DNA of 64,000 nt from Tubiluchus corallicola. Taxonomy: Eukaryota > Animalia > Priapulida. Of this stretch, positions 14,509 through 56,705 are shown piece after piece; position 1 is the first letter of the stretch, and every line of letters starts with the position of its first letter. The notes below the pieces were generated by a model that was not told where the DNA came from, ran no database searches, and was given only the letters and a program-made list of their open reading frames with translations. The DNA lies in assembly GCA_030141605.1 (NCBI GenBank), contig JAQGDQ010002381.1, positions 1 through 64,000 of the forward strand. The letters are read 5' to 3'. Both the position numbers and the translations under genes were made by a program.

Positions 14509-15816
14509 TTAAACGAATGAATCTGATTCCGACTCGGGCTCTGATTCCGACTTGGGCTCTGATTCGGACTCGAACTCGTCCGATGAGGACTCAACTACTT
14601 CACTGTCAGTTTGTGGTTCAATTGTTCTTTTTCTTCTAATAATATATGCCCCCAGCCCTAACAGAGCAGCTACAGCGACTCCAACTACAATGCCAACTAT
14701 TACTAATTTGTGAAACTTGAAATCCGTTGTTGTTTTTGAAGTGGTGTCTTCCACTGTATTTATTTCGGTCACAGTTGTTGATGCTGCCGTCGATGTTGTA
14801 GATGCTGCCGTTGATGTTGTAGATGCTGCCGTCGATGTTGTTGATGCTGCCGTCGATGTTGTAGATGCTGCCGTTGATGTTATAGATGCTGCCGTCGATG
14901 TTGTTGATGCTGCCGTCGATGTTGTAGATGCTGCCGTCGATGTTATAGATGCTGCCGTCGATGTTGTAGATGCTGCCGTTGATGTTGTAAATGCTGCCGT
15001 CGATGTTGTTGATGCTGCCGTCGATGTTGTAGATGCTGCCGTCGATGTTGTAGATGCTGCCGTCGATGTTGTAGATGCTGCCGTCGATGTTGCTGATGCT
15101 GCCGTCGATGTTGTAGATGCTGCCGTCGATGTTGTAGATGCTGCTGTCGACGTTGTTGAAGCTGCCGTCAACGTTGTTGATGCTGCTGTCGATGTTGTTG
15201 ATGCTGCCGTCGACGTTGTGGATGCTGCCGTCGATGTTGTTGATGCTGCAATCGATGTTGTTGAAGCTGCCGTCGACGTTGTTGTTGCTGCTGTCGACGC
15301 TGTTGTTGCTGCTGTCGACGCTGTTGATGCAGCCGTCGACGTTGTTGAAGCTGCCGTCGACGTTGTTGATGCTGCTGTCGACGCTGTTGATGCTGCCGTC
15401 GATGTTGTTGATATTGTTGTCGTCGTTAACAGTTCATCACAGTCAAAATCATCAGCTGTTGCATCTTGAACATTTTTAGGCCACACACAATCAACACGAG
15501 TGAGATTATTGAGCGACCAGGGAGGTAGAACAATCCAGGTCAAGTTGCAGTCGCATCTCAATTGTCCATCTAAAAAATAGGAAACCATTCAGAAGCCAAG
15601 ATTAGACTACCAGTCTACAGCAAAAGAATACTATTATTTGTCAGCCTACAATAGACACGCTAGAAATGTTCACTTTCATTTGACATGACCCAGGTACCGA
15701 AATCAGTTTTCTGCATTTTGATAAATACATTGTTTTAAGTACTTACCTTCTGAATACTTCAACAGTGGTAACAATACATTTTGAAGTGCACTCAGTTCAA
15801 TAGTAAGAATGCAGTG
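14509..15816 (-). CDS. LRR C-terminal cap + Thr/Ser/Ala mucin stalk + transmembrane helix (type I LRR receptor, 3' exons only)
   Basis: The last exon 15569-14509 (acceptor ttttttag) encodes LRCDCNLTW...DCVWPK...FDC (LRRCT), about 30 STAASTT 7-aa repeats, the TM LVIVGIVVGVAVAALLGLGAYII-RRKR and an acidic tail. A probable upstream exon ends at 15747 (gaag/gtaagt, phase-compatible). Confidence 0.75.
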
Positions 15817-16453: not shown

Positions 16454-17329
16454 ATGACTTCGACAAGCGATCACAACATTACCCTGGATGAGTTTCGACT
16501 GTTAAACCCAAAACAAAGAGAAAAAGTCAATAAAAGTGAATTACTGAGGCTACTATCAGAATCAGAAATGACACCGCAAGCAGAGTCAGGTCTCGAGGAC
16601 AGCAGTAAAGGCACTGAACTAGAAAGTCAAGCAGCTATGGAAACAAGGATTATTCAACAGGTTAGATTATTAATTTTTCCATTATCCAAGGAAATCTCTG
16701 AACTAAAGCAGCTCACAGATCAAGTTAAATCTAGCCAGGACTTTATAAGCAGCAAATTTGACCAATTTAAAATGGAGACAGATGCTTTAAAAAAGACCAC
16801 CAATGATCTTACTAAAAAATTAAACGAGCTAGAGAGAAAGCAGGATGATTTAGACCAGTATGGGCGACGGAACACCCTCATTATCTCCGGTATACCCCAA
16901 GCTAGTGATTATGAAAATACTGACGAAATTGTTTGTCAAGTAGGTCAAGCCCTCAAGGTGAACATCTGTAAAGAGGACATCTCGATCTCCCATCGATTGC
17001 CACGAAAAGAAAGTGCTACAAGACCACCTCAGATTATTGTGAAATTTATAAAACGGAAAGTAAGAGACTGTTTGTGGCAAAACAAACCCAAGAGAAATGG
17101 ATCTCTTAAGGCTAGTGATTTAGGGTATGTTTCACATAATCTTGTGTACATTAGTGAAAGTTTAACTAATCGTAGACGTGTATTACTTAACAAATGTCTC
17201 GAACTAAAAAGAAACAAAGTAATCTTGTATGTTTGGACTAAAAATGGCCAGATTTTCATCAGGAAAACTGAAACATCTGAACCCTTCCCTGTAAACAATT
17301 TTGATGATGTAGATAAATTAAAACACTAA
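16454..17329 (+). CDS. LINE ORF1 (coiled coil + L1-ORF1-like RRM/CTD)
   Basis: 291 aa with DDLDQYGRRNTLIISGIP, HRL...PPQIIVKF, YISESLT and VWTKNGQIFIRK motifs typical of CR1-group ORF1. Confidence 0.88.
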   Translation: MTSTSDHNITLDEFRLLNPKQREKVNKSELLRLLSESEMTPQAESGLEDSSKGTELESQAAMETRIIQQVRLLIFPLSKEISELKQLTDQVKSSQDFISSKFDQFKMETDALKKTTNDLTKKLNELERKQDDLDQYGRRNTLIISGIPQASDYENTDEIVCQVGQALKVNICKEDISISHRLPRKESATRPPQIIVKFIKRKVRDCLWQNKPKRNGSLKASDLGYVSHNLVYISESLTNRRRVLLNKCLELKRNKVILYVWTKNGQIFIRKTETSEPFPVNNFDDVDKLKH

Positions 17330-17366
17330 TCCCTTCTTCACTCGTTTGAATCAATTTCTCATTGTA

Positions 17367-20300
17367 ATGGTTAGCTTTAATTGTACTAAGTGTAATAAAA
17401 CTTGCAAAGCAAATCAAAACTCAATTCAATGTGATGTGTGTTCCCTCTGGACACATCTAAAGTGTACAATGTTGTCTCATCATGAATTTGTAAATTTAGC
17501 AAATTCTAATGACAGTTACTTCTGCCAGCAATGCATTAATGATGTGCTTCCTTTGCAGTTCATTGATGATGATGAATTTATGGAAATGACTAATCACTAT
17601 CAATTTTCTAATTTTGTAAAAGATTTATCTTGCTTTTCATCAATTTATGACTCTTCTTCGCTAGTCCACTGTAATAGAGATGATACAGACATCGACAATT
17701 ATAGACTTCAGTATGACAGCAAATACATTAATCTTGCAAATCTGAGTAGTGATAAATCCACAGATAAAGCAAACAATGACACATTTATAATACACTTTAA
17801 CACATCAAGTTTGAGGAAATACTATTCAGACATGACTGATACATTAACACAATTTCAAAAAATGCCTGAGTTAATAGCGATCTCGGAAACCAGAATTCAC
17901 GAATCTGACACTTTTTTATGTAACATTCCAGGATATTCTTTCTTACACTATGATTCCAATACAGCTGCTGGTGGCGTAGGTGTGTATGTAAAATCTAGTC
18001 TCAATTTTAAAATTAAACCTGAATACAAAATAAGAACTTGTAAAAATGTTATTGTTAATGGGATTAGTACAACTAGTAGACTAGCACTTGAGGACCTGTG
18101 GCTCGAAATTGCTTCCACCGATAACAAAAAATCTTTCATATTTGGAGTAATATATAGGCATCCAAACACCCCAGTCGAGCATTTTCATGACGAATTAGAA
18201 TCAGTTCTTTGCACTATCAACTCCACAGGCAAACCAGCTTATATATGTGGAGACATTAATATAGATTTATATCAACATGATAACAAGCCATTTATTAATA
18301 AGTATCTCAACATGCTCTTCTCAAATCAATTTACACCAATTATCACGCGACCAACTAGAATTACTCCAACGTCACACACCTTAATTGATCATATTTATAC
18401 TAATAATCTTTCTACACCCATCACATCTGGCATCATTACTAACCCCATTGCGGACCACTTGCCAATATTTGCCATTATAAGAAATACTAATCTCCTGCAC
18501 AACAAGATTAAAAAATCAGTCAGATGTACGAGATCATTCAATCAAGGTAACTTTTTAAGCGAGCTTCAAGTTAATATAAGTAACCTAACACTGAATGATG
18601 GCGAAGCAGACATACACTCTTACTGCTCACAATTCATGGACTCGTTTAAAACATTACTTGATAAACATGCCCCACTCAAAACGTTATCAAGGAAAAACTC
18701 AAAACTATAGCTAAACCATGGATCACTCCCGGCATTCTTAATTCTATTAAAACAAGAAGCCGTATGTATACAACACACAAGTTATCCAACTCGCTGTATA
18801 AGCAAAATTTATATAAAACATATTCTAACAAACTTAATCACATCAAACATGCATCCAAAAAGAAGTATTACTCCCAGATCTTGGTTGCAAACAAAAATAA
18901 CATGAAACAAACTTGGAGCACTATCAATGAACTTCTCAAAATTAAAAAAAGGACAGCTAGTATAATGCCAACTAAAGTTCGTTACCAAGGCACAACCTCG
19001 TGTGACCCGCACCATAAAGCTAATGCTTTTAACAGTTTTTTTGCAAACATTGGTATATCACTGGCATCACGCATAACACAACCCCAAAACTGTAAGTATA
19101 CAGACTATTTAATGCATCCCCAAGAAAATTCTTTCTATATCACACCAGTTAGCGAAATCGAGATGTCCCAAGCTATTGATAGACTAGATCCCAATAAAGC
19201 AAAAGGCCCTTATGACATCCCAATTACATATTTTAAAATGTCTAAAAACATAATTTTAGCTCCGCTTACAAATCTGTTTAATGCGTCAATTCTGACTGGG
19301 ACATTCCCCGACACTTTAAAACTGGCAAAAGTAATCCCCATATATAAAAAAGATGATCCAAATGAGCTGAACAACTACCGACCTATCTCACTCATATCAC
19401 CCATTGCCAAAATTTTTGAGTCAATTTTATATAAACGTCTGATGACATATTTAATCAAAAATGATACAATATCATGTTTTCAATTCGGTTTCCGCAAAAA
19501 TCATTCCACAATATTAGCAACTGCTGAAATCATAGACAATCTTCTGACAAACCTAGACAATAAATTACTTACCTGCGGCATTTTTCTTGATTTAACAAAA
19601 GCTTTTGACACCGTTCAACACGACATTTTACTCAACAAAATGGACTATTATGGTATCCGTGGAATCACGCAAAAACTATTCCAGTCATATCTTACAAACA
19701 GACACCAGTTTACGGTTGTTGACAATTTTGCCTCTGACCGATGCTCAATTCAGTGTGGTGTACCCCAAGGATCCACCTTGGGTCCACTTCTTTTCCTGAT
19801 ATATATAAATGACCTCCCTCTTTGTACTAACATGCAAACACGACTTTTTGCTGATGACACTAACCTCTTCTTAGCAGACAACGATACGCAAAATCTTGAG
19901 CTTAGAAGTAATGAAGAATTGATCAAAATTAACACATGGATGCGTACAAATAAGTTAACAGTAAACTATAATAAAACAAAATTTATGATCATAAGAAATA
20001 AATTTGAAAACAATGAAAACTCCATTATAACAGTATCCATGCAAGACTGTTTATTAGAACAAGTATCAGACATAAAATATCTGGGCGTCTACATAGATGA
20101 CACCCTTAATTGGTCAACACACATAAAAATATTACCTACAAAGTAAGCAAAGTTACAGGTATATTTTTTAAATTGAGGCATTACTTGAGCACGGATATAC
20201 TAAAAATGATTTACTTTGCCATTGTGTACCCACACATTAACTATTGTATCTTATCGTGGGGCACAGCAAAAAAATCTGTTTTGAAACCTCTTACATCAGC

Positions 20301-20685
20301 ACATAACAAAATTATCAAAACAATGACTTTTGCTGGGTTCCGAGATCATGCTACCCCTTCCTATTATGCTTTGCAATTATTAAAAATTAATGAAATTTAT
20401 AAGCTTGAGTTAGCGAAATTCATGTTCAAGTATAAAAAGTGCATTCTACCTAAATTATATGGCAATTATTTCAAAAAGATTAGTGACGTTCACCAGTATT
20501 CTACGAGAGCAGCTACCAAACAAAACTATTTTCAGGAAAGATTTAACACAACAAAAGGTCTACAAACTTTAAAACATAATGGTACAATTCTATGGAATAC
20601 TCTTTCAGATGATCTTAAGCAATCGACTAGTATCTATCAGTTAAGTAAATTATATAAATGTCAACTCTTGCAAACTTATTATTGA
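17367..20685 (+). pseudogene. LINE ORF2 (PHD finger, AP endonuclease, reverse transcriptase) with two frameshifts
   Basis: PHD C..C...CDVC..W.H..C...YFC..C; APE ISETR, GDINID, LIDHIY, DHLPI; RT YRPISL, QFGFR, FLDLTKAFD, GVPQGSTLGP, FADDT, KYLG. The frame shifts at ~18700-18712 and ~20125-20130, both at A-runs. Confidence 0.92.
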
Positions 20686-22421
20686 GATAAGCGTACAGTA
20701 TTTTGCCTATCTATCTGCCTCTTCATTTTACATCAGATCATCAAAACTCGCTCTGTATTTATTTATTTTTTTTTTTACATTATGCTTGTGTTATAAAGTA
20801 AATTTCAGTTACCATTGTTATTATGTTTCTGATGTCAGATTTTTATTTCAGTCCTTATTTCAGTTATGTTCAGTTTGATTTTTTTTTATTATTATTATGC
20901 ACTTATTATTACTGTGTATGAATTGTACTAACACATTATAAGCATATCATTATCAATTTTATGTCATTCGTAACACTTTATTTATTATAAGCAGTACTAA
21001 CACTAATACACTAGCATAGCGCCTATAAAAAATGTTCATCACTAACCAAAGGGCAGCTGACTAGATGACCAATTGGTCTTTCGCTGCCCTTTCTTCACAT
21101 TTTTGTTGCTAAATTAATTGTATTGTGACTGTGCGTGTGTTAAAAGATAAATAAAAGATTATTATTATTATTATTATTATTATGATACAAACCTGCACAC
21201 ATTATGTATTCTTTTGAAATGTTTAGTAAAGTGCATGTACAATTTTGCCGTATCCGTATCCGTATAGTTTACAAAGACAAATTTCATTACGTTCATGAAG
21301 GCACTGATACATACCTGCGCACATTATATATCCTTTGTTTTGGAAACCACGGATGTGTAAAACTGGAAACCGTGTACGTCAGTAGGATAGATGTTACACC
21401 TCTGGCCGATTTCCCGGGGGGGGTGGGGATTTCCCCGGGGGGGTGGGGAAAAACACCCCTAAAAAAGTGCGAAAATCCACGAAAACCCCTAAAAAAGTGT
21501 GAAAACCCGTGTGAAAGTGTGCACGTGACCGAAATCGACGAAAAAGCGCGAAAAACAAAGAAAAACAAAGAAAAGGCGTGTGAAACGAGGTAAAAATTTT
21601 CCAGTTTTTCCCTCCCGCATGGCTTCATTTGGATCGAATGACCTTGAACTCTAGGTCACGTGACCAAAGTTCATTGACCCCTGGCCCCTGGATGGCTTCT
21701 TTTTTTGACGCCCCATTTTAAACCGCGCGAAAGCGCTCGAAAGCGCGCGAAAGTGTGTGAAAGCGTGTGAAAGCGCGTGAAAGCATGTGAAAGTGTGTGA
21801 AAGTGTGTGAAACGAGGTAAAAAGCGCCTCAAACGAAGAAAAAGGGAGAAGTGGAGTTCCCGCCGTGGACTAATTAGTGCTAATTGGCGCTAATTGGCGC
21901 TAATTGGGGAGCCCCTGCCACCCCTCCGCCGCATACAAACGTCCGTCCCGGGGGTCGGGGACCCCCCCCCCCCTGCAACCCACCCCTCCGTCGCGTGGAA
22001 TCGTCCACTGCAGGCAATGAGGGAAATCTTTTTCCCGCCACTCGCGCAGTGCCGGCCCTTTTCCGCGACCACTTCTCTCTCTCTCGGGTGTCCTCCCTTT
22101 TCCGCGACCACTTCTCTCGCGGGTTTAGATGTGTGTGTGTGTGGAGATTTATTTCAAATGCCAAAGTTCGATAAATGCATTTTCACAAATCTTTTTTATT
22201 GATGGATTACAGGTGTGGAGATTTATTTCAAACGCCAAAGTTCGATAAATGCATTTTCACAAATCTTTTTTTATTGATGGATTACAAAAAATTTTTTTAC
22301 ATTTTTTATGCAAAATACATACGTGCTAAAACTAGATTATTATTATTATTATGGTGACATGATAGTTCTACATTTTACGTTTTTTTCGCAAATTACACAA
22401 ATTATGCAAATTACAGTAAAA

Positions 22422-23012
22422 CTACACTAATGACGACGAGCGAGTACATGGATTGTCGTCGCCGTCGTCGATGTGATACAGACAAACGTTATTGTTGTTA
22501 AAAACGAATTCGTTAAATTTGCGGAAAACGCGAGAGAAATCCTCGACCTTTGTCCCGCCCATCATTATTATGCTTCCGGTGTGAAAAATGTTCAGAGTAA
22601 TTTGCTCGCATTTGCAAGTTAGTTTGGGAAATAGTTCCACTTCGTAAAACACTTCTCTAAAAGAATGCGTCGAAGGACGAACGAGTTCTTCGTACAGTGC
22701 ACCCAGTTTCAATCTGCAGCGAATTTTGGCTCTGGCGGTGATGGTGCGAATTGCGATCCCGTCGGCGGGCGTCAGTCCGAGACCTTTCGAGAGTTCTTCG
22801 ATCGCATTGCGTAGTACTTTTTCCTCCGAAAAACCGTTGGCCACCACGGAGCCGGAGGCAAAAATCATCAGCGTCCTGCCCAGTCGCTTTAGCAGAAGCA
22901 TTTGCGGTTTTCTTTCGTAGCGTCTTCCGCCCGTTCTCCGCCGGAGTTCGTTCAGATCGAAGCGCTGCGAGAACGAAGCCGTGGCGACGATGTTGACCGT
23001 TTGGACTGACAC
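22422..23012 (-). CDS. TBP-like protein, left-arm copy
   Basis: Mirror of 24637-25227 with three amino-acid differences seen (G/R, H/R, D/G). Confidence 0.75.
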   Translation of the reverse strand: MSVQTVNIVATASFSQRFDLNELRRRTGGRRYERKPQMLLLKRLGRTLMIFASGSVVANGFSEEKVLRNAIEELSKGLGLTPADGIAIRTITARAKIRCRLKLGALYEELVRPSTHSFREVFYEVELFPKLTCKCEQITLNIFHTGSIIMMGGTKVEDFSRVFRKFNEFVFNNNNVCLYHIDDGDDNPCTRSSSLV

Positions 23013-23453
23013 GTTAGAACATAGTTGGCAATCGTTTCGGACGCCCGAACCGCTCTGCCTCGTCCGTTGCTCTGCCAACGTATGGCGGGCGGTGGGTGGT
23101 CGCTTTCCAGATCCTCTACGCGTATGACCACGCGATTTTTGGGGAGATGTTTTTTGACGAAATCGTACATCTCTGCTCCCTTGACGTAGNNNNNNNNNNN
23201 NNNNNNNNNNNNNNNNNNNNNNNNNNNNNNNNNNNNNNNNNNNNNNNNNNNNNNNNNNNNNNNNNNNNNNNNTTAGGTAGTTGTAGGTGGATCGCTTGTG
23301 CTGGGGAACGCGATTCCAGGGGTGGGGCGGTTTGAAGGTGTAGTTGTGATATATGCCGGTCTCTATTTCGCGAATTACCAAATTTTTGACCAGGTATTCT
23401 TCTTTTCCGCACTGGAAGGCATCTACGGTGAGAACTATGCTCGATTCAGACAT
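22952..23453 (-). CDS. Exonuclease-like protein, left-arm copy (spans the N gap)
   Basis: Mirror of 24185-24697. Confidence 0.6.
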
Positions 23454-23676
23454 CTGTGACGATGGGGGGTCCTTCTACGCCGTCGGCAACGAGTTTTCCT
23501 TCGATGACGATTTGCTTGTGATTGTTCACAAATTCCAGAGACTTGATTTTTTCGAAGGTGTATTTTTTTATGACCTTGTTGGGGGCACTCTTGCGTGCGT
23601 TGGCGCGCTTGCCGCCCCGCGTCCCCGCTTGTTGTTGTTGCTTGCGAGGAACGGTGGTTAGAGGTTGTTTGAAATC
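23446..23676 (-). CDS. Small basic protein (terminal exon) of the element; partial mirror at 23985-24192
   Basis: Acceptor ttcttcttctcttgcag precedes DFKQPLTTVPRKQQQQAGTRGGKRANARKS...PPIVTDV*. Its stop overlaps the next start (gATGtcTGA). Confidence 0.45.
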   Translation of the reverse strand, partial: DFKQPLTTVPRKQQQQAGTRGGKRANARKSAPNKVIKKYTFEKIKSLEFVNNHKQIVIEGKLVADGVEGPPIVTDV

Positions 23677-23727
23677 CTGCAAGAGAAGAAGAACAATAGT
23701 TATAGTATTGTTGTTCGCTAACGACAA

Positions 23728-23984
23728 CTAGGCATTTTTGATGAGCCATTCTTTCAGATTTCTAGGTTTTTTGGGGGCAGTGGGGGTGAGCACCATCGGC
23801 GGCGATGGAGGGGGCGTCGCGGAAATTACGAGTTTGTCTTCTTCTTTATCATCATCTTTCTCCTCTTCCTCCTCCTCCTCTCGAAAGATGTCCATTCGTG
23901 TCCCTCTCTCGCGTCTGCTTTTACACGGAGGGGCGGAGGTGCCGACGTCCGTGTCTGGCAGACTTCTTTCCGTCCAGTTTGTCC
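23728..23984 (-). CDS. C-terminal fragment of an acidic, Pro-rich protein in the unique spacer
   Basis: ...MDIFREEEEEEEKDDDKEEDKLVISATPPPSPPMVLTPTAPKKPRNLKEWLIKNA*; truncated by the arm junction. Confidence 0.4.
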
Positions 23985-24184
23985 AGTTCCTCGCAAGCAA
24001 CAACAACAAGCGGGGACGCGGGGCGGCAAGCGCGCCAACGCACGCAAGAGTGCCCCCAACAAGGTCATAAAAAAATACACCTTCGAAAAAATCAAGTCTC
24101 TGGAATTTGTGAACAATCACAAGCAAATCGTCATCGAAGGAAAACTCGTTGCCGACGGCGTAGAAGGACCCCCCATCGTCACAG

Positions 24185-24697
24185 ATGTCTGAATCGAGCA
24201 TAGTTCTCACCGTAGATGCCTTCCAGTGCGGAAAAGAAGAATACCTGGTCAAAAATTTGGTAATTCGCGAAATAGAGACCGGCATATATCACAACTACAC
24301 CTTCAAACCGCCCCACCCCTGGAATCGTGTTCCCCAGCACAAGCGATCCACCTACAACTACCTAATCAGACACATACACGGCATCTCGTGGGAGGAGGGA
24401 ATGATCGAGTACGCAGAATTGGAAAACATTCTACGACAGACCACCAGAGGCAGGATCACCTACGTCAAGGGAGCAGAGATGTACGATTTCGTCAAAAAAC
24501 ATCTCCCCAAAAATCGCGTGGTCATACGCGTAGAGGATCTGGAAAGCGACCACCCGCCGCCCGCCATACGTTGGCAGAGCAACGGACGAGGCAGAGCGGT
24601 TCGGGCGTCCGAAACGATTGCCAACTATGTTCTAACGTGTCAGTCCAAACGGTCAACATCGTCGCCACGGCTTCGTTCTCGCAGCGCTTCGATCTGA
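24185..24697 (+). CDS. Putative DEDD/RNase H-fold exonuclease-like protein of a type recalled from animal Polinton cargo
   Basis: 170 aa with an ATG start. The pattern VDAFQ..YLVKNLVI...YTFKPP..W......YL.RHIHGISWEEG..Y..L....YVKG.E...F......VEDL matches the recalled family. Both arm differences seen in this ORF are synonymous. Confidence 0.6.
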   Translation: MSESSIVLTVDAFQCGKEEYLVKNLVIREIETGIYHNYTFKPPHPWNRVPQHKRSTYNYLIRHIHGISWEEGMIEYAELENILRQTTRGRITYVKGAEMYDFVKKHLPKNRVVIRVEDLESDHPPPAIRWQSNGRGRAVRASETIANYVLTCQSKRSTSSPRLRSRSASI

Positions 24698-25227
24698 ACG
24701 AACTCCGGCGGAGAACGGGCGGAAGACGCTACGAAAGAAAACCGCAAATGCTTCTGCTAAAGCGACTGGGCGGGACGCTGATGATTTTTGCCTCCGGCTC
24801 CGTGGTGGCCAACGGTTTTTCGGAGGAAAAAGTACTACGCAATGCGATCGAAGAACTCTCGAAAGGTCTCGGACTGACGCCCGCCGACGGGATCGCAATT
24901 CGCACCATCACCGCCAGAGCCAAAATTCGCTGCAGATTGAAACTGGGTGCACTGTACGAAGAACTCGTTCGTCCTTCGACGCATTCTTTTAGAGAAGTGT
25001 TTTACGAAGTGGAACTATTTCCCAAACTAACTTGCAAATGCGAGCAAATTACTCTGAACATTTTTCACACCGGAAGCATAATAATGATGGGCGGGACAAA
25101 GGTCGAGGATTTCTCTCACGTTTTCCGCAAATTTAACGAATTCGTTTTTAACAACAATAACGTTTGTCTGTATCACATCGACGACGACGACGACAATCCA
25201 TGTACTCGCTCGTCGTCATTAGTGTAG
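24637..25227 (+). CDS. Divergent TATA-binding-protein (TBP) core-like protein, intronless
   Basis: Two TBP repeats: VNIVATASFSQRFDL...TLMIFASGSVVANG and ...FYEVELFPKL...LNIFHTGSIIMMG, versus recalled TBP QNIVSTVNL..LDL, TALIFSSGKMVCTG, YEPELFPGL and LLIFVSGKVVLTG. No in-frame ATG precedes the domain; the start shown is a GTG. Confidence 0.8.
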   Translation: MSVQTVNIVATASFSQRFDLNELRRRTGGRRYERKPQMLLLKRLGGTLMIFASGSVVANGFSEEKVLRNAIEELSKGLGLTPADGIAIRTITARAKIRCRLKLGALYEELVRPSTHSFREVFYEVELFPKLTCKCEQITLNIFHTGSIIMMGGTKVEDFSHVFRKFNEFVFNNNNVCLYHIDDDDDNPCTRSSSLV

Positions 25228-26839
25228 TTTTACTGTAATTTGCATAATTTGTGTAATTTGCGAAAAAAACGTAAAATGTAGAACTATCACGTCACCATAA
25301 TAATAATAATAATCTAGTTTTAGCACGTATGTATTTTGCATAAAAAAATGTAAAAAAAATTTTTTGTAATCCATCAATAAAAAAGATTTGTGAAAATGCA
25401 TTTATCGAACTTTGGCGTTTGAAATAAATCTCCACACACACACACACACACACACATCTAAACCCGCGAGAGAAGTGGTCGCGGAAAAGGGAGGGCACCC
25501 GAGAGAGAGAAGTGGTCGCGGAAAAGGGCCGGCACTGCGCGAGTGGGGGGGGGGAAGATTTCCCTCATTGCCTGCAATGGACGATTCCACGTGACGGAGG
25601 GGTGGGTTGCAGGGGGGGTGTCCCCGACCCCCGGGACGGACGTTTGCACGCGGCGGAGGGGTGGCAGGGGCTCGCCAATTAGCGCCAATTAGCACTAATT
25701 AGTCCTCGGCGGGAACTCCACTTCTCCCTTTTTCTTCGTTTGAGGCGCTTTTTACCTCGTTTCACACACTTTCACACGCTTTCGCGCACTTTCACACACT
25801 TTCACGCGCTTTCACACACTTTCACATGCTTTCGCGCGGTTTTGCGCGGTTTAAAATGGGGTGTCAAAAAAAGAAGCCATCCAGGGGTCAATGAACTTTG
25901 GTCACGTGACCTAGAGTTCAAGGTCATTCGATCCAAATGAAGCCATGCGGGAGGGAAAAACTGCAAAATTTTTACCTCGTTTCACACGCCTTTTCTTCGT
26001 TTTTCTTTGTTTTTCGCGCTTTTTCGTCGATTTCGGTCACGTGCGCACTTTCACACGGGTTTTCACACTTTTTTAGGGGTTTTCGCGGATTTTCGCACTT
26101 TTTTAGGGGTGTTTTTCCCCACCCCCCCGGGCAGCCAAAGGGGGGGTGGGGAAATCGGCCAGAGGCAAAACATCTATACTACTGAGGCCGAAATACCTGG
26201 GAAAGTTAAAGTTGTCCAAAAGTCCTGTAAGACCTTCACGACCTGGTAGAACCAGTACTTGACAATAATTATTGAAATTATCTCTTTTACTGCATTTGTC
26301 ACAGACTGGCAATGTTTAAAGCATGTGACGCAAATTGTGGCCTTCAACTATAGGTGACAGTAGGAAATTGTAATAAAACCCATCGACCTGTTTTTGTGAC
26401 TTGATTATAGCTTTTTAATATAAGGCTTAGTTCTAAAAATCCTAACGTTGATTGGGATAATATGTACAAAACATCCAGGTTACAGAATTCTTGAGATTCG
26501 AACACCAAACTATCACTGTCCGTTTGTTTTGGATTTTTTTTTGTAAAAAATAAACCAAAACAGGTACACCAGGGGAAAGTAATTTTTGTTATTATAATGG
26601 TTATTCTCGCGGTGATTTCCAAATAGTTGTTTTCTTTTTATAGTTTGAGAAATCTGGTAGTCGAAAAGAAGAATTAGTACTGGAAGATTTTCTTGCCAGT
26701 TTAAAAGAGACTGAGTTTATGGATGCACATTTTGCGAAGTACAAGGTATAGGCTGTGCTTTCTTTAAATATCAAATAATTCATTGTTTAGTATAAGTGAC
26801 CCAGTCAACATTTTCTTCTTTTTTCTCTTGCTCTTTCTC

Positions 26840-51300: not shown

Positions 51301-54300
51301 TAAAAGTTGAATTATCAGTGAATGATAAATTATTATGTAGAAGATAACCGCCCTGCAGGTCAAGTGACTAACCTCAAAATTGTCCTTGAAATCTATCATC
51401 TACTACCATTAATCCTTGCAAAGCGCCTTGTGTAAAAAACATCTCTGGTTATTTGTGCTCAAAGAGAAAAAGCTTCTCATAATATTCTTGATTTCTAAAT
51501 GCAGGTTTAGTGATTATTTACCAATGATGACTTATCACCTTAATGGAATATGGAACAAACACGCTGGTCATGGAAGTCCTTTGCATCCTCACTCCTACGA
51601 TGTGGACAAAACTGCGAATATTGTAAGTGAAGAGGTCGCCTTTGAAATATCTTTGTTTTTAGTAATTTCAGTTAAGTGTAAGACAACTTGGAAAATCACA
51701 CACAAGCAAGGGCAGCATTTTTGTGTCATGTGTGTGAAAGGGATAAATTATTGGAAAATCACGGAAGCACTTTTGAGACTAATAGCTATGAAGATGCGGT
51801 ATGATCGTTTTCCTTAGATAACCTAGTAATCTTCCATGCCATATAGTGTTCCTTGGTTTTTAGGGTACTTGGATAACCTAATAATCTTCCATGCCATGTA
51901 GTGTTCCTTAGTTTTTAGTGTACTTGGATAACCTAATAATCTTCCATGCCATGTAGTGTTCCTTAGTTTTTAGTGTACTTAGATAATCTAATAATCTTCC
52001 ATGCCATATAATGTTCCTTAGTTTTTAGTGTACTTAGATAACCTAATAATCTTCCATGCCATGTAGTGTTCCTTAGTTTTTAGGGTACTTAAATAACCTA
52101 GTAATCTTTCATGTCATATAGCGTTCCTTAGTTTTTAGTGTACTTAGATAATCTAATAATCTTCCATGCCATGTAATGTTCCTTAGTTTTTAGTGTACTT
52201 AGATAATCTAATAATCTTCCATGCCATGTAATGTTCCTTAGTTTTTAGCGTACTTAGATAATCTAATAATCTTCCATGCCATATAATGTTCTTTAGTTTT
52301 TAGTGTACTTAGATAATCTAATAATCTTCCATGCCATGTAGTGTTCCTTAGTTTTTAGTGTACTTAGATAATCTATTAATCTTCCATGCCATGTAGTGTT
52401 GCTTAGTTTTTAGTGTACTTAGATAATCTAATAATCTTCCATGCCATGTAGTGTTCCTTAGTTTTTAGTGTATTTAGATAATCTAATAATCTTCCATGCC
52501 ATATAACGTTCCTTAGTTTTTAGTGTACTTAGACAATCTAATAATCTTCCATGCCATATAGCGTTCCTTAGTTTTTAGTGTACTTAGATAATTTAATAAT
52601 CTTCCATGCCATATAGCGTTCCTTAGTTTTTAGTGTACTTAGATAACCTAAATCCTATTATCGTTGCTTTTTTTTAAGGAATTCATCGTCCAATATTGGA
52701 TAAACCATGGAACGGATCCAAAGAAATTGCTGCTGGGAATTCCTCTTTTTGGACAGACTTACACTCTCCAAGACCCATCTGACCACATGTTAAATGCACC
52801 TATTGTAGGAAGTGGCAAGGCTGGACACATGTATCAACAGGAAGGAATGATGCCGTACTACGAGGTTTGTGCCCACAAAACTTTGCTTGAGCTTATTCTT
52901 ATTAAGATTTTCGGCTTCTTGTGGATTGGTAAACACCAATCTTATTACTGCTTAAGTGATAGATTTAGCCAACTGAACAACTGATAATGCTTCTTGCGAA
53001 TATTTTTTGAATGACTTACAGATCTACGTCTTCACTCATAATAAATGAATAAATTACGACAAAATTTGCAGATTATAAAGATTCGCAAATCTGTTTCGGA
53101 AAATTCACAAACATTTTAATGGTACCAATGTGCGGCATTTGTCACATTTGCAAATAAATAAAAATTGTGGTTTATTTCTATTAATTTTAATGACTTGCAT
53201 TACTTAAATCTTTTGTAGGTGTGTTCTGAAGTGATGCCAAGCTATGAAAGCTTTTGGGTTGAAGATCAGCTTGTTCCATTTGCTTACAAAAATGACCAAT
53301 GGATTGGCTACGAGGATTCAAGGAGTATTAGTGAAAAGGTAACAATCCTTTGCAGTATATTTGGACAAGTTCTAGAACTTCCATCACCAAACTTTCACTA
53401 ATTTTTTTGTACGTATTGTTGACCACAGTTAGCATTCAACTGGTTACTGATCACCAACTTTTGTAATTTTTGCAACGCATTTGCATGTTATCAACGGGCC
53501 TCATTTTTCCCTGACTGACAATAGGGTTCGTCTAACTAGTTTTTGTTTGTAGGTCAAGTATGTGATCGACAATCACCTTGGAGGCGTTATGGTCTGGGCA
53601 TTAGGTTTTGATGATTTTAAAGGTCATTGTAATCATGGAAGGAATCCTCTGTTGACCACAATAAAAACAGAATTGCTGGAAGTGACACAGGTGACCTATG
53701 TAATCCACACAAAATCTTCAAATGTTTTACAGCAGTTGCCGCACAAGTATGAAACGGGTGCAGTAGAACCACATTATGCAACATCACATCACGGTGAGAC
53801 GTACAGGCGTCATACTGTGCAACATCGGCGACACTACGTACAACATGTATCCCATCAGCAAGAAGGACAACACCCTGTTCATGGATATGATGAGCACCAT
53901 GCCTACCATGGGCACAGTCGCAGTCGCAGAGTGGAGTCATCATATTCACGGCACGGGAATTATCACGATGCGTATCCTCATCAAACACAAGGAAGTTACA
54001 TACCATATCAAGAACACGAAATGATTCCCCACGAAACGTACAATTACGAAACATATCCACACAGAGATGCATATGAAGTCTACCCTAGCAACAGCTATCC
54101 TTATGACGCTCACAATTATGTAATATATCTGCCGGAGCAGTATGACGTGCACCCTCATCAAACACATGAGAATTACGGTGCATATTCAGCACATGGACAG
54201 TATGATGATTTCGAAGTACATCCTCGTGAAAGTTCTGAAATATATCCAGTAAACGAGCCGCATGCGTACCCTTATGAAAAAAGCAATTATTACGATACTT

Positions 54301-56705
54301 ACCCTGGGTCTGAACTCTATGAAGTTCATCCTTATGAAAGTTATGGTTATGAAACACACCCTGATGAACTGTATGCTGAACATGGACATTATGAAGGGCA
54401 TCCTCGTGAAACATACCCTGAACATGGACATTATGAAGGGCATCCTCGTGAAACATATCCTGAACATGGACATTATGAAGGGCATCCTCGTGAAACATAC
54501 CCTGAACATGGACATTATGAAGTGCATCCTCGTGAAACATACCCTGAACATGGACATTATGAAGTGCATCCTCGTGAAACATACCCTGAACATGGACATT
54601 ATGAAGTGCATCCTCATGAAACATACCCTGAACATGGACATTATGAAGTGCATCCTCGTGAAACATACCCTGAACATGGACACTATGAAGTGCATCCTCA
54701 TGAAACATACCCTGAACATGGACATTATGAAGTGCATCCTCGTGAAACATACCCTGAACATGGACATTATGAAGTGCTTCCTCATGAAACATACCCTGAA
54801 CATGGACACTATGAAGTGCTTCCTCATGAAACATACCCTGAACATGGACACTATGAAGTGCATCCTCATGAAACATACCCTGAACATGGACACTATGAAG
54901 TGCATCCTCGTGAAACATACCCTGAACATGGACATTATGAAGTGCATCCTCGTGAAACATACCCTGAACATGGACATTATGAAGTGCATCCTCATGAAAC
55001 ATACCCTGAACATGGACATTATGAAGTGCATCCTCATGAAACATACCCTGAACATGGACATTATGAAGTGCTTCCTCATGAAACATACCCTGAACATGGA
55101 CACTATGAAGTGCATCCTCATGAAGCGTACCCTGAACATGGACACTATGAAGTGCTTCCTCATGAAACATACCCTGAACATGGACACTATGAAGTGCATC
55201 CTCATGAAACATACCCTGAACATGGACACTATGAAGTGCATCCTCGTGAAACATACCCTGAACATGGACATTATGAAGTGCATCCTCGTGAAACATACCC
55301 TGAACATGGACATTATGAAGTGCATCCTCATGAAACATACCCTGAACATGGACATTATGAAGTGCATCCTCATGAAACATACCCTGAACATGGACATTAT
55401 GAAGTGCTTCCTCATGAAACATACCCTGAACATGGACACTATGAAGTGCATCCTCATGAAACATACCCTGAACATGGACATTATGAAGTGCTTCCTCATG
55501 AAACATACCCTGAACATGGACACTATGAAGTGCATCCTCATGAAACATACCCTGAACATGGACACTATGAAGTGCATCCTCATGAAACGTACCCTGAACA
55601 TGGACACTATGAAGTTCATCCTAATGAATTATATCCTCATGAAGAGTATCCTGAACATGGACACTATGAAGTGCATCCTCATGAAACGTATCCTGAACAT
55701 GGACACTATGAAGTGCATCCTCATGAAGAGTATCCTGAACATGGACACTATGAAGTGCATCCTCATGAAACGTATCCTGAACATGGACACTATGAAGTGC
55801 ATCCTCATGAAACGTACCCTGAACATGGACACTATGAAGTGCATCCTCATGAAACGTATCCTGAATATGGACACTATGAAGTGCATCCTCATGAAACGTA
55901 CCCTGAATATGGACACTATGAAGTGCATCCTCATGAAACGTACCCTGAACATGGACACTATGAAGTGCATCCTCATGAAACGTACCCTGAACATGGACAC
56001 TATGAAGTGCATCCTCATGAAACGTACCCTGAACATGGACACTATGAAGTGCATCCTCATGAAACGTACCCTGAACATGGACACTATGAAGTGCATCCTC
56101 ATGAAACATACCCTGAACATGGACACGATGCATATGAAAGCTATCCAGGCCACTATGATACGTATCCATCACATGTTTCCACAGTTGGTATTCCATTTCC
56201 ACACCATACAGCTTATTCTTATGAAGGGTATCCTACAAATCAATCCTATGAACAATATCCACGTAATACTTACAACGATTATGAATTACCTGGTACTGTT
56301 GGACACGAGACATATCCCAGTAATACTCATGGGGGCGAAAGCCTTGGCCCAGTAGTTGCCCAGGAAGAGCAGAGGCCATATAATCCAGAATTGGAGGAAA
56401 CAAAACTTTCGGATTCCGGTTCATCTGCTTCTGGAAGAAACGGCGCTGTGGGAATGGCTACAGAAAGTACGCAATGTGAGGTGAAAGGACCAGGTCCCTC
56501 TTGCTCCGGACATTCGCACATGGTAATGGCAAATCCAATAAACTGTCGCAAGTACTATCTATGTCTGTGGCAGAACACACCCAATGAAATGCGTGTTCCA
56601 ATGAACTGCCCGGAGGGAACAGTCTTTCATCCATTCAAATACATGTGTGATGATAAGGAAAATGTTGATACATCCGTAATATGTAAATGTGGAGAAGAGT
56701 CGTGA
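47078..56705 (+). CDS. Secreted GH18 chitinase(-like) protein with a His/Tyr/Glu repeat linker and a C-terminal CBM14
   Basis: Exons 47078-47147 (signal peptide), 48481-48672, 50611-50873, 51116-51240, 51505-51622, 52679-52864, 53219-53338 and 53553-56705. Motifs IDPSTCTHI, KVLLAVGGW, FDGLNVDWEFP, LLLGIPLFG, WIGYED and GGVMVWALGFDDF; C-terminal NCRKYYLC...CPEGTVF....CD. Confidence 0.92.
48790..49000 (-). mobile_element. Probable tRNA-derived SINE
   Basis: The minus strand begins ggctgcgtagcctgatagg (A-box-like) ... gtgttcgatac (B-box-like) and ends near a simple-repeat tail. Confidence 0.45.
51812..52650. repeat. 55-bp intronic tandem repeat, about 15 copies
   Basis: Unit gataatctaataatcttccatgccatgtagtgttccttagtttttagtgtactta. 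Confidence 0.95.
54378..56127 (+). repeat. Coding 42-bp tandem repeat (ETYPEHGHYEVHPH), about 40 copies
   Basis: Directly visible and in frame within the chitinase last exon. Confidence 0.95.

Follow-up and report, generated by a model that had tools for sequence, protein, structure and literature searches.

Giant viruses and herpesviruses are well-known carriers of viral TATA-binding proteins (TBPs) (PMC7221094, PMC12529657; both as far as their text was available). According to the accessible part of PMC7221094, TFIIB binding is assigned to two glutamates of the C-terminal lobe, and a basic cluster of the first lobe serves TFIIA, TAF1, Brf1/2, Mot1, and NC2; in viral TBPs this cluster is lost and the TFIIB site has mostly diverged. 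TBPs of large dsDNA viruses keep the DNA-binding Phe residues and often accompany a viral TFIIB (same part of PMC7221094). The TBP mimic ORF24 of beta- and gammaherpesviruses is a TBP-fold factor directing host Pol II to viral promoters; it is a multi-domain protein, works together with further viral factors, and is predicted to be incompatible with direct TFIIB binding (available part of PMC12529657).

Polinton/Maverick elements are characterized by ends of the type 5'-(AGT)2//(ACT)2-3' (PMC8097293), terminal inverted repeats, and intronless accessory genes near these ends (accessible sections of PMC8097293 and PMC6431247); for vertebrate Mavericks, no particles were seen (accessible sections of PMC8097293). 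A TBP-like gene in Polinton-related viruses is already labelled in print, namely in the legend of Fig. 5 of Starrett et al. 2021 (PMC8502044), where MELD viruses with an adintovirus-like PolB carry a gene named "TBP". In the available part of that paper the gene is given as a label, without residue analysis, family survey, promoter, or mechanism, and "TBP" and "TATA" are absent from the one supplement that was text-searched. The available part of PMC11071296 contains neither of these words, and in a search of freely accessible literature none of the papers listed was devoted to Polinton TBPs.

Here we describe a TBP-like ORF of the priapulid Tubiluchus corallicola, located in a window of 64,000 nt (the whole stretch analysed, positions 1 to 64,000 of contig JAQGDQ010002381.1). 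Similar to cellular TBPs (PF00352; yeast 1ytb, human 1cdw), the encoded protein has the two-lobe saddle, the first-lobe Asn, three intercalating Phe, and the YExELF stirrup. It differs from them in a shortened first stirrup lacking Phe, the replacement of the second-lobe Asn by Thr, the absence of the basic helix-2 patch and of an N-terminal extension, the absence of a visible intron, and its location on a mobile element. Like the TBPs of large dsDNA viruses it has kept the DNA-binding Phe and lost the first-lobe regulatory signature, but it retains both glutamates at the adapter site, where those proteins diverge. Provided that the role proposed below holds, it would be comparable to ORF24, although as a stand-alone core of 196 aa. 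The carrying element resembles Polintons in its ends, its terminal inverted repeats, and the position of intronless accessory genes; in contrast to complete Polintons, the copy in the window lacks core genes and the 6-bp target-site duplication, and one of its ends is duplicated. The protein is genuine and a divergent representative of the under-described group of Polinton TBPs, carried by a defective fragment. Since this copy is defective, it contributes a divergent member and a residue pattern and not a mechanism.

Structure of the palindromic element

The TBP-like ORF is part of a palindromic element with the following features:

21381..26183, no strand: palindromic element of 4.8 kb carrying one Polinton/Maverick-type end twice (self-alignment)
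21381..22211, minus strand: left terminal region, starting with AGTAGG, 90% like the right one
22139-22286: 74-bp duplication joining the left terminal region to the inner arm
22422..23012, minus strand: left-arm copy of the TBP-like ORF, differing in 3 of 591 bases from 24637..25227
22952..23453, minus strand: left-arm copy of the 170-aa ORF, interrupted by the N gap
23190..23272, no strand: N gap of 83 bases, a scaffold join in the left arm
23653..23985, no strand: unique spacer of 333 nt, in which the left arm continues naturally in the direction of the element interior
23986..23994, plus strand: 9-nt microhomology at the fold-back junction, joining the spacer to the right arm
23986..24192, plus strand: 3' portion of an ORF located upstream; its stop codon and the ATG of the 170-aa ORF overlap (from the sequence)
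24185..24697, plus strand: 170-aa ORF, overlapping the start of the TBP-like ORF by 61 nt
24637..25227, plus strand: TBP-like ORF of 196 aa plus stop, opening at a GTG codon
25365..26183, plus strand: right non-coding terminal region, ending in ACTACT (self-alignment and end motif)
25376..25381, plus strand: AATAAA, a putative poly(A) signal downstream of the three ORFs in tandem

With a GC content of 49% the element is set apart from the rest of the window (35%), and read depth drops sharply past 26183. Its right junction with the unique flank is bridged by one contig with no difference, and another contig leaves at the same base. The Maverick end motif is exact on the right side (ACTACT) and present with five of six bases on the left (AGTAGG). 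Terminal inverted repeats are present, their natural length not being readable from a fold-back copy. Within 3 bases of either end, flanked by TACGTC and GAGGCC, no duplication of 4 to 10 bp was found, where one of 6 bp is expected.

The inner arms are 99% alike, as compared to only 90% for the outer 800 bp. One contig passes unbroken from the left arm into the spacer, and contigs of runs X1, X3, and X4 depart from the window sequence after 23994, which indicates that other copies continue into an interior that the copy in the window lacks. None of the listed contigs spans the fold-back junction or crosses the N gap. The copy in the window, one element end folded back on itself, is defective and cannot function autonomously. 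A template switch would account for the inner joint; for the left outer part, another copy or the scaffold join may be the source.

In run X3 the contig with the whole TBP-like ORF has a depth of 536 versus 3.9 for the unique flank contig, a rough ratio of about 140 that is not a copy count. The family was found in four runs of two studies and represents a high-copy mobile element in an animal-like genome. Tandem CCAATTAG/CTAATTAG units occur in the terminal region at 25676-25702 and 21871-21908 and are candidate sites for host factors or an origin.

Neither neighbour of the TBP-like ORF on its 5' side could be assigned to a family: no family match was obtained for the upstream ORF, and none for the 170-aa ORF in Pfam, PHROGs, NCBIfam, or homolog searches. 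The model of the latter reached a pLDDT of 37.5, and 13 of its 23 listed read differences are silent. This ORF may be RNase H/DEDD-exonuclease-like. No RNA data set was listed as containing the element; one contig of a putative RNA run overlaps only two short stretches of the 170-aa ORF.

The TBP-like open reading frame and its copies

The initial annotation described an intronless ORF of about 196 aa with both TBP repeats, present in both arms, and translation of 24637-25227 recovered all of its quoted motifs (YERKPQM, IFASG, ELFP, and IFHTG, with Thr at the second-repeat Asn position). The second copy is real, but due to the duplication of one element end the two arms are not independent evidence, so that the presence in both arms does not count twice.

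In the TBP frame the first ATG appears only from residue 38 on, and the length of 196 aa depends on the GTG start 61 nt inside the 3' end of the 170-aa ORF, which has an A at position -3. Read contigs reveal a rarer subfamily, approximately 85% identical, that has a canonical start codon in this position and thereby supports a start at 24637; the dominant subfamily starts the frame with GTG. Near 24627 an ATG occurs upstream in another frame, which we disregarded because nearly all read depth differs there.

A 753-nt contig of the second study spans the TBP-like ORF without gaps; the contig is deep and the whole frame is open. In run X2, single-base losses at 24785 and 24827 affect about 13-14% of the depth. 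Together with the GTG start of the dominant subfamily, these frame-breaking losses suggest that many copies are decaying. In the part that is TBP-coding only, 9 of the 17 listed read differences (the list being the best-supported subset) are silent versus an expected fraction of 0.24, with p 0.009 against a null of all changes and a weaker p of 0.10 against transitions only.

Fold and residue anatomy

The assumption of a TBP fold was borne out. The Pfam family PF00352 matches the ORF in two stretches (E 4e-22, 78 bits versus a cut-off of 22.9), and sequence matches were obtained to 35 distinct PDB sequences, all of which are TBPs or TBP fusions, the best covering residues 6-167. An AlphaFold model based on a 13-row alignment has a mean pLDDT of 88.8. 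Foldseek against the PDB gave 44 matches at E<=0.001 (best E 5.8e-11), those listed being all TBP-containing, and superposition on solved TBPs resulted in TM values of 0.7-0.76 (about 0.75) at 22-26% identity. The best viral structure matches, in BFVD, are giant-virus TBPs. The region 24637-25227 thus encodes a two-lobe TBP homolog.

Asn7, Thr47, Phe51, Phe128, Phe143, and the stirrup Tyr123-Glu124-x-Glu126 are kept. As proposed initially, three of the four intercalating Phe are retained and the KRF position of the first repeat is replaced, PKRF being aligned to RKPQM; the canonical eukaryotic set of four Phe is therefore incomplete. The conserved Phe of the IF-x-S/T-G turn is present in both lobes (Phe51 and Phe143), and these residues probably correspond to position L5.1 of PMC7221094.

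On the DNA face, the first Phe is lost and Asn59, Thr90, Thr92, Lys130, Asn141, and Met151 are altered. In TBP structures, these positions are taken to face the DNA. P0002, which is 59% identical, keeps Phe51, Phe128, Phe143, Glu124, Glu126, and all six altered residues, and the latter are also partly constant across the subgroup with KP-Q in place of PKRF. Glu124 and Glu126 are the two acidic C-lobe stirrup residues of canonical TBP, and these TFIIB-contact glutamates are kept in 14 of the 14 rows compared. Helix 2 has a net charge of -1 versus +3 and +5 in two eukaryote-type TBPs, and the basic N-lobe patch that serves TFIIA, TAF1, Brf, Mot1, and NC2 in canonical TBP is lost.

Relatives, gene context, and phylogeny

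P0002, from a Logan data set, is the only close protein in the collections searched; it and the other nearest relatives, P0003, P0004, and P0008, are all without gene context. Gene context was provided by more distant proteins. An initial metagenome scan gave no matches; a six-row alignment used as query retrieved 20 loci, in which the relatives located next to core genes are 21-34% identical. In 15 of these 20 loci, which are not independent since eight come from three related data sets, a short TBP (about 145-190 aa) is situated beside at least one Polinton core gene. L012-L016 were excluded from this number, as they are short AT-rich contigs with cellular-type TBPs and without Polinton genes. 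The core genes comprise an rve integrase with chromodomain, a protein-primed PolB, an A32-like ATPase, and an adenain-like protease. In L004 and L022, polymerase, integrase, and ATPase occur together with a common capsid-sized ORF of 419-424 aa, which has no Pfam match and is read as the major capsid protein by size and place.

In the window itself, tblastn with 12 Polinton proteins from L004, L019, and L022 detected no pPolB, integrase, ATPase, protease, or capsid gene at E<=0.01. Thus the proposed linkage of the TBP gene to pPolB, integrase, and capsid genes was observed among the metagenome relatives, but not for the window copy.

Two arrangements recur among the Polinton loci. A PLA2-like gene is followed by the TBP gene and then, where the contig reaches, by the ATPase gene in L010, L019, L021, and L022 (e.g., L022 3994-5912). 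In a second group (L003-L009 and L011), the TBP gene follows immediately after a PC4-like coactivator gene and precedes the integrase gene (e.g., L004 1302-2731), and the TBPs of this group keep a basic helix 2. In L003 and L004, the TBP gene is preceded by a TATATATA run. P0005, a protein of 702 aa, matches TBP lobes four times and continues with a hydrophobic segment and a tail of unrelated sequence. A TFIIB-like gene was not found among 34 chosen proteins of Polinton loci.

When viral contigs were scanned, neither the window protein nor the six-row alignment nor the 170-aa ORF yielded relatives; two loci from one scan were rejected as phage tail regions with chance matches. Viral scans with alignments of Polinton-locus TBPs gave 19 loci, none of which matched the Polinton proteins tested, and no phage match was obtained.

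A first, quick tree comprised 109 unlabelled rows. A second one was calculated from 48 chosen rows, labelled eukaryote-like or archaea-like by motif and by their place in the 109-row tree; neither contained a labelled TRF2/TBPL1 sequence. In the 48-row tree the window protein belongs to a starred set of 18 rows (99/96), together with six TBPs of Polinton loci and ten short TBPs that lack context, and lies outside of a separate set of 22 cellular-like rows (99/98). Another three TBPs of Polinton loci group apart. A forced clade of the window protein with 11 eukaryote-type TBPs was marginally rejected (p-AU 0.045), all branches being long. The shortened first stirrup and KP-Q instead of PKRF are common to the window protein, L010, L017, L019, L020, and L022.

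The initial annotation had set an element-borne gene against a retrocopy nesting with host TBPs, and the grouping with Polinton-locus TBPs apart from the cellular ones, the identity of about 25% to cellular TBPs, the open frame, and the KP-Q mark speak for the former. The ORF is very probably cargo of a Polinton family. That a foldback element other than a Polinton picked up a retrocopy or fragment of a host TBP/TRF gene, which is now in neutral decay, is highly improbable and largely refuted: the lack of a core gene and of a target-site duplication in the window and the absence of labelled TRF2/TBPL1 rows would be compatible with it, but a frame that is open and a fold that is intact at such low identity, the stirrup deletion and grouping in common with Polinton-locus TBPs, and the Maverick end motif are at odds with this explanation.

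A candidate promoter box in the relatives

The motif YATAAAC was picked by eye from three (L010, L017, and L022) of seven related loci of the KP-Q subgroup, in which it occurs no more than 120 nt before 23 of 31 non-TBP genes versus 0 of 7 TBP genes. Its position is mostly 35-60 nt before the ATG, and 46 sites on the plus strand are opposed by 4 on the minus strand. In the four loci outside the motif choice, 7 of 17 sites are located within 110 nt of an ATG, with 0 minus-strand sites. For loci of the L003/L004 type no enrichment was observed (1 of 12 sites near an ATG). Some sites overlap the stop codon of the upstream gene, and one precedes the polymerase gene (L019). YATAAAC resembles a TATA box so closely that host TBP could read it. 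The motif is absent from the window element, in which the interior genes are missing.

Proposed role and alternative explanations

Considering residue pattern and gene context, we lean slightly towards the view that the TBP-like protein provides the element family with a promoter-recognition factor of its own for host Pol II. Synthesis of the protein would be weak and would start from a GTG codon, in the last of three overlapping ORFs. The altered DNA face of the protein may read an element-specific TATA variant, the kept YExE glutamates may recruit host TFIIB and hence Pol II, and the loss of the basic patch may free the protein from control by TFIIA, TAF1, Mot1, and NC2. As a result, interior genes, e.g., those of ATPase, integrase, and capsid, would be switched on. 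The initial annotation had considered a redirection of Pol II or Pol III as well as competition with host TBP; of these, Pol II is favoured, and a Pol III role or simple competition is less likely because the basic patch is lost and the TFIIB glutamates are kept.

Under a different explanation, which we consider unlikely, the gene is a passenger, i.e., once-functional cargo whose TBP frame is no longer translated and is kept by hitch-hiking and by the overlap with its neighbour. The GTG start of the dominant subfamily, the frame-breaking copies in run X2, the defective fold-back copy in the window, and the weakness of the silent-site excess under the transition-only null would fit such a fate; on the other hand, the frame is open throughout in the deep contig of the second study, the GTG is preceded by an A at -3, and the protein is conserved relative to P0002. 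Rather unlikely as well is a decoy or repressor, by which the Polinton cargo would bind host TFIIB or TATA without a working initiation complex and thereby dampen host or element transcription. Such a protein might be expected to keep the TFIIB glutamates and to lose the TFIIA/TAF1 surface, as observed, and a weak GTG start would suit a factor harmful at high level. However, the constancy of the altered DNA-face residues between the window protein and P0002, and in part within the subgroup, and the gene-linked TATA variant of the relatives fit an activation of the element's own genes better.

Improbable, in our opinion, is a role at the element ends or in replication, with the protein binding and bending terminal-repeat DNA instead of acting in transcription. 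This idea arises from the location of the gene, which borders the terminal repeat in the window and has PC4-like and integrase genes as neighbours in L003/L004. Within L010-L022, the TBP gene is instead an interior gene between the PLA2 and ATPase genes, and the invariance of the TFIIB-contact glutamates is hardly expected for a protein of this kind.

Returning to the promoter-recognition factor, it is tempting to speculate that several Polinton lineages, including this one, run a minimal self-encoded switch, although we put this forward only tentatively: a stand-alone TBP, altered on its DNA face and deaf to the host TBP regulators, would recruit TFIIB and Pol II to an element TATA variant before the packaging, integrase, and capsid genes. 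If true, no smaller viral take-over of basal transcription would be known, and the switch would offer a way into the question of how endogenous Polintons activate their particle genes. The element-encoded TBP and the candidate box represent a directly testable switch for particle-gene expression of integrated Polintons, and a short TBP that keeps the TFIIB surface while shedding the regulatory patch is a natural dissection of TBP surfaces.

Other features of the window

A LINE-like retrotransposon is located at 16454-20685 (plus strand), with an ORF1 containing a baculovirus FP-like domain, followed by PHD and endonuclease and by reverse transcriptase. It occupies three separate frames, has an ATT-repeat tail near 21160-21186, and sits in a local repeat; its ORFs are unrelated to the palindromic element. 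At 1-2890 a 78-bp satellite array occurs, the first 400 bp of which are inverted relative to the rest. An ORF of 1038 aa at 53589-56705 (plus strand) consists of 42-bp repeats with a C-terminal chitin-binding peritrophin-A domain and is mucin/peritrophin-like. A Thr/Ala/Ser-rich exon of 21-bp repeats with a transmembrane segment at 14509-15588 (minus strand) probably forms the terminal exon of a mucin-like membrane protein gene of the host.
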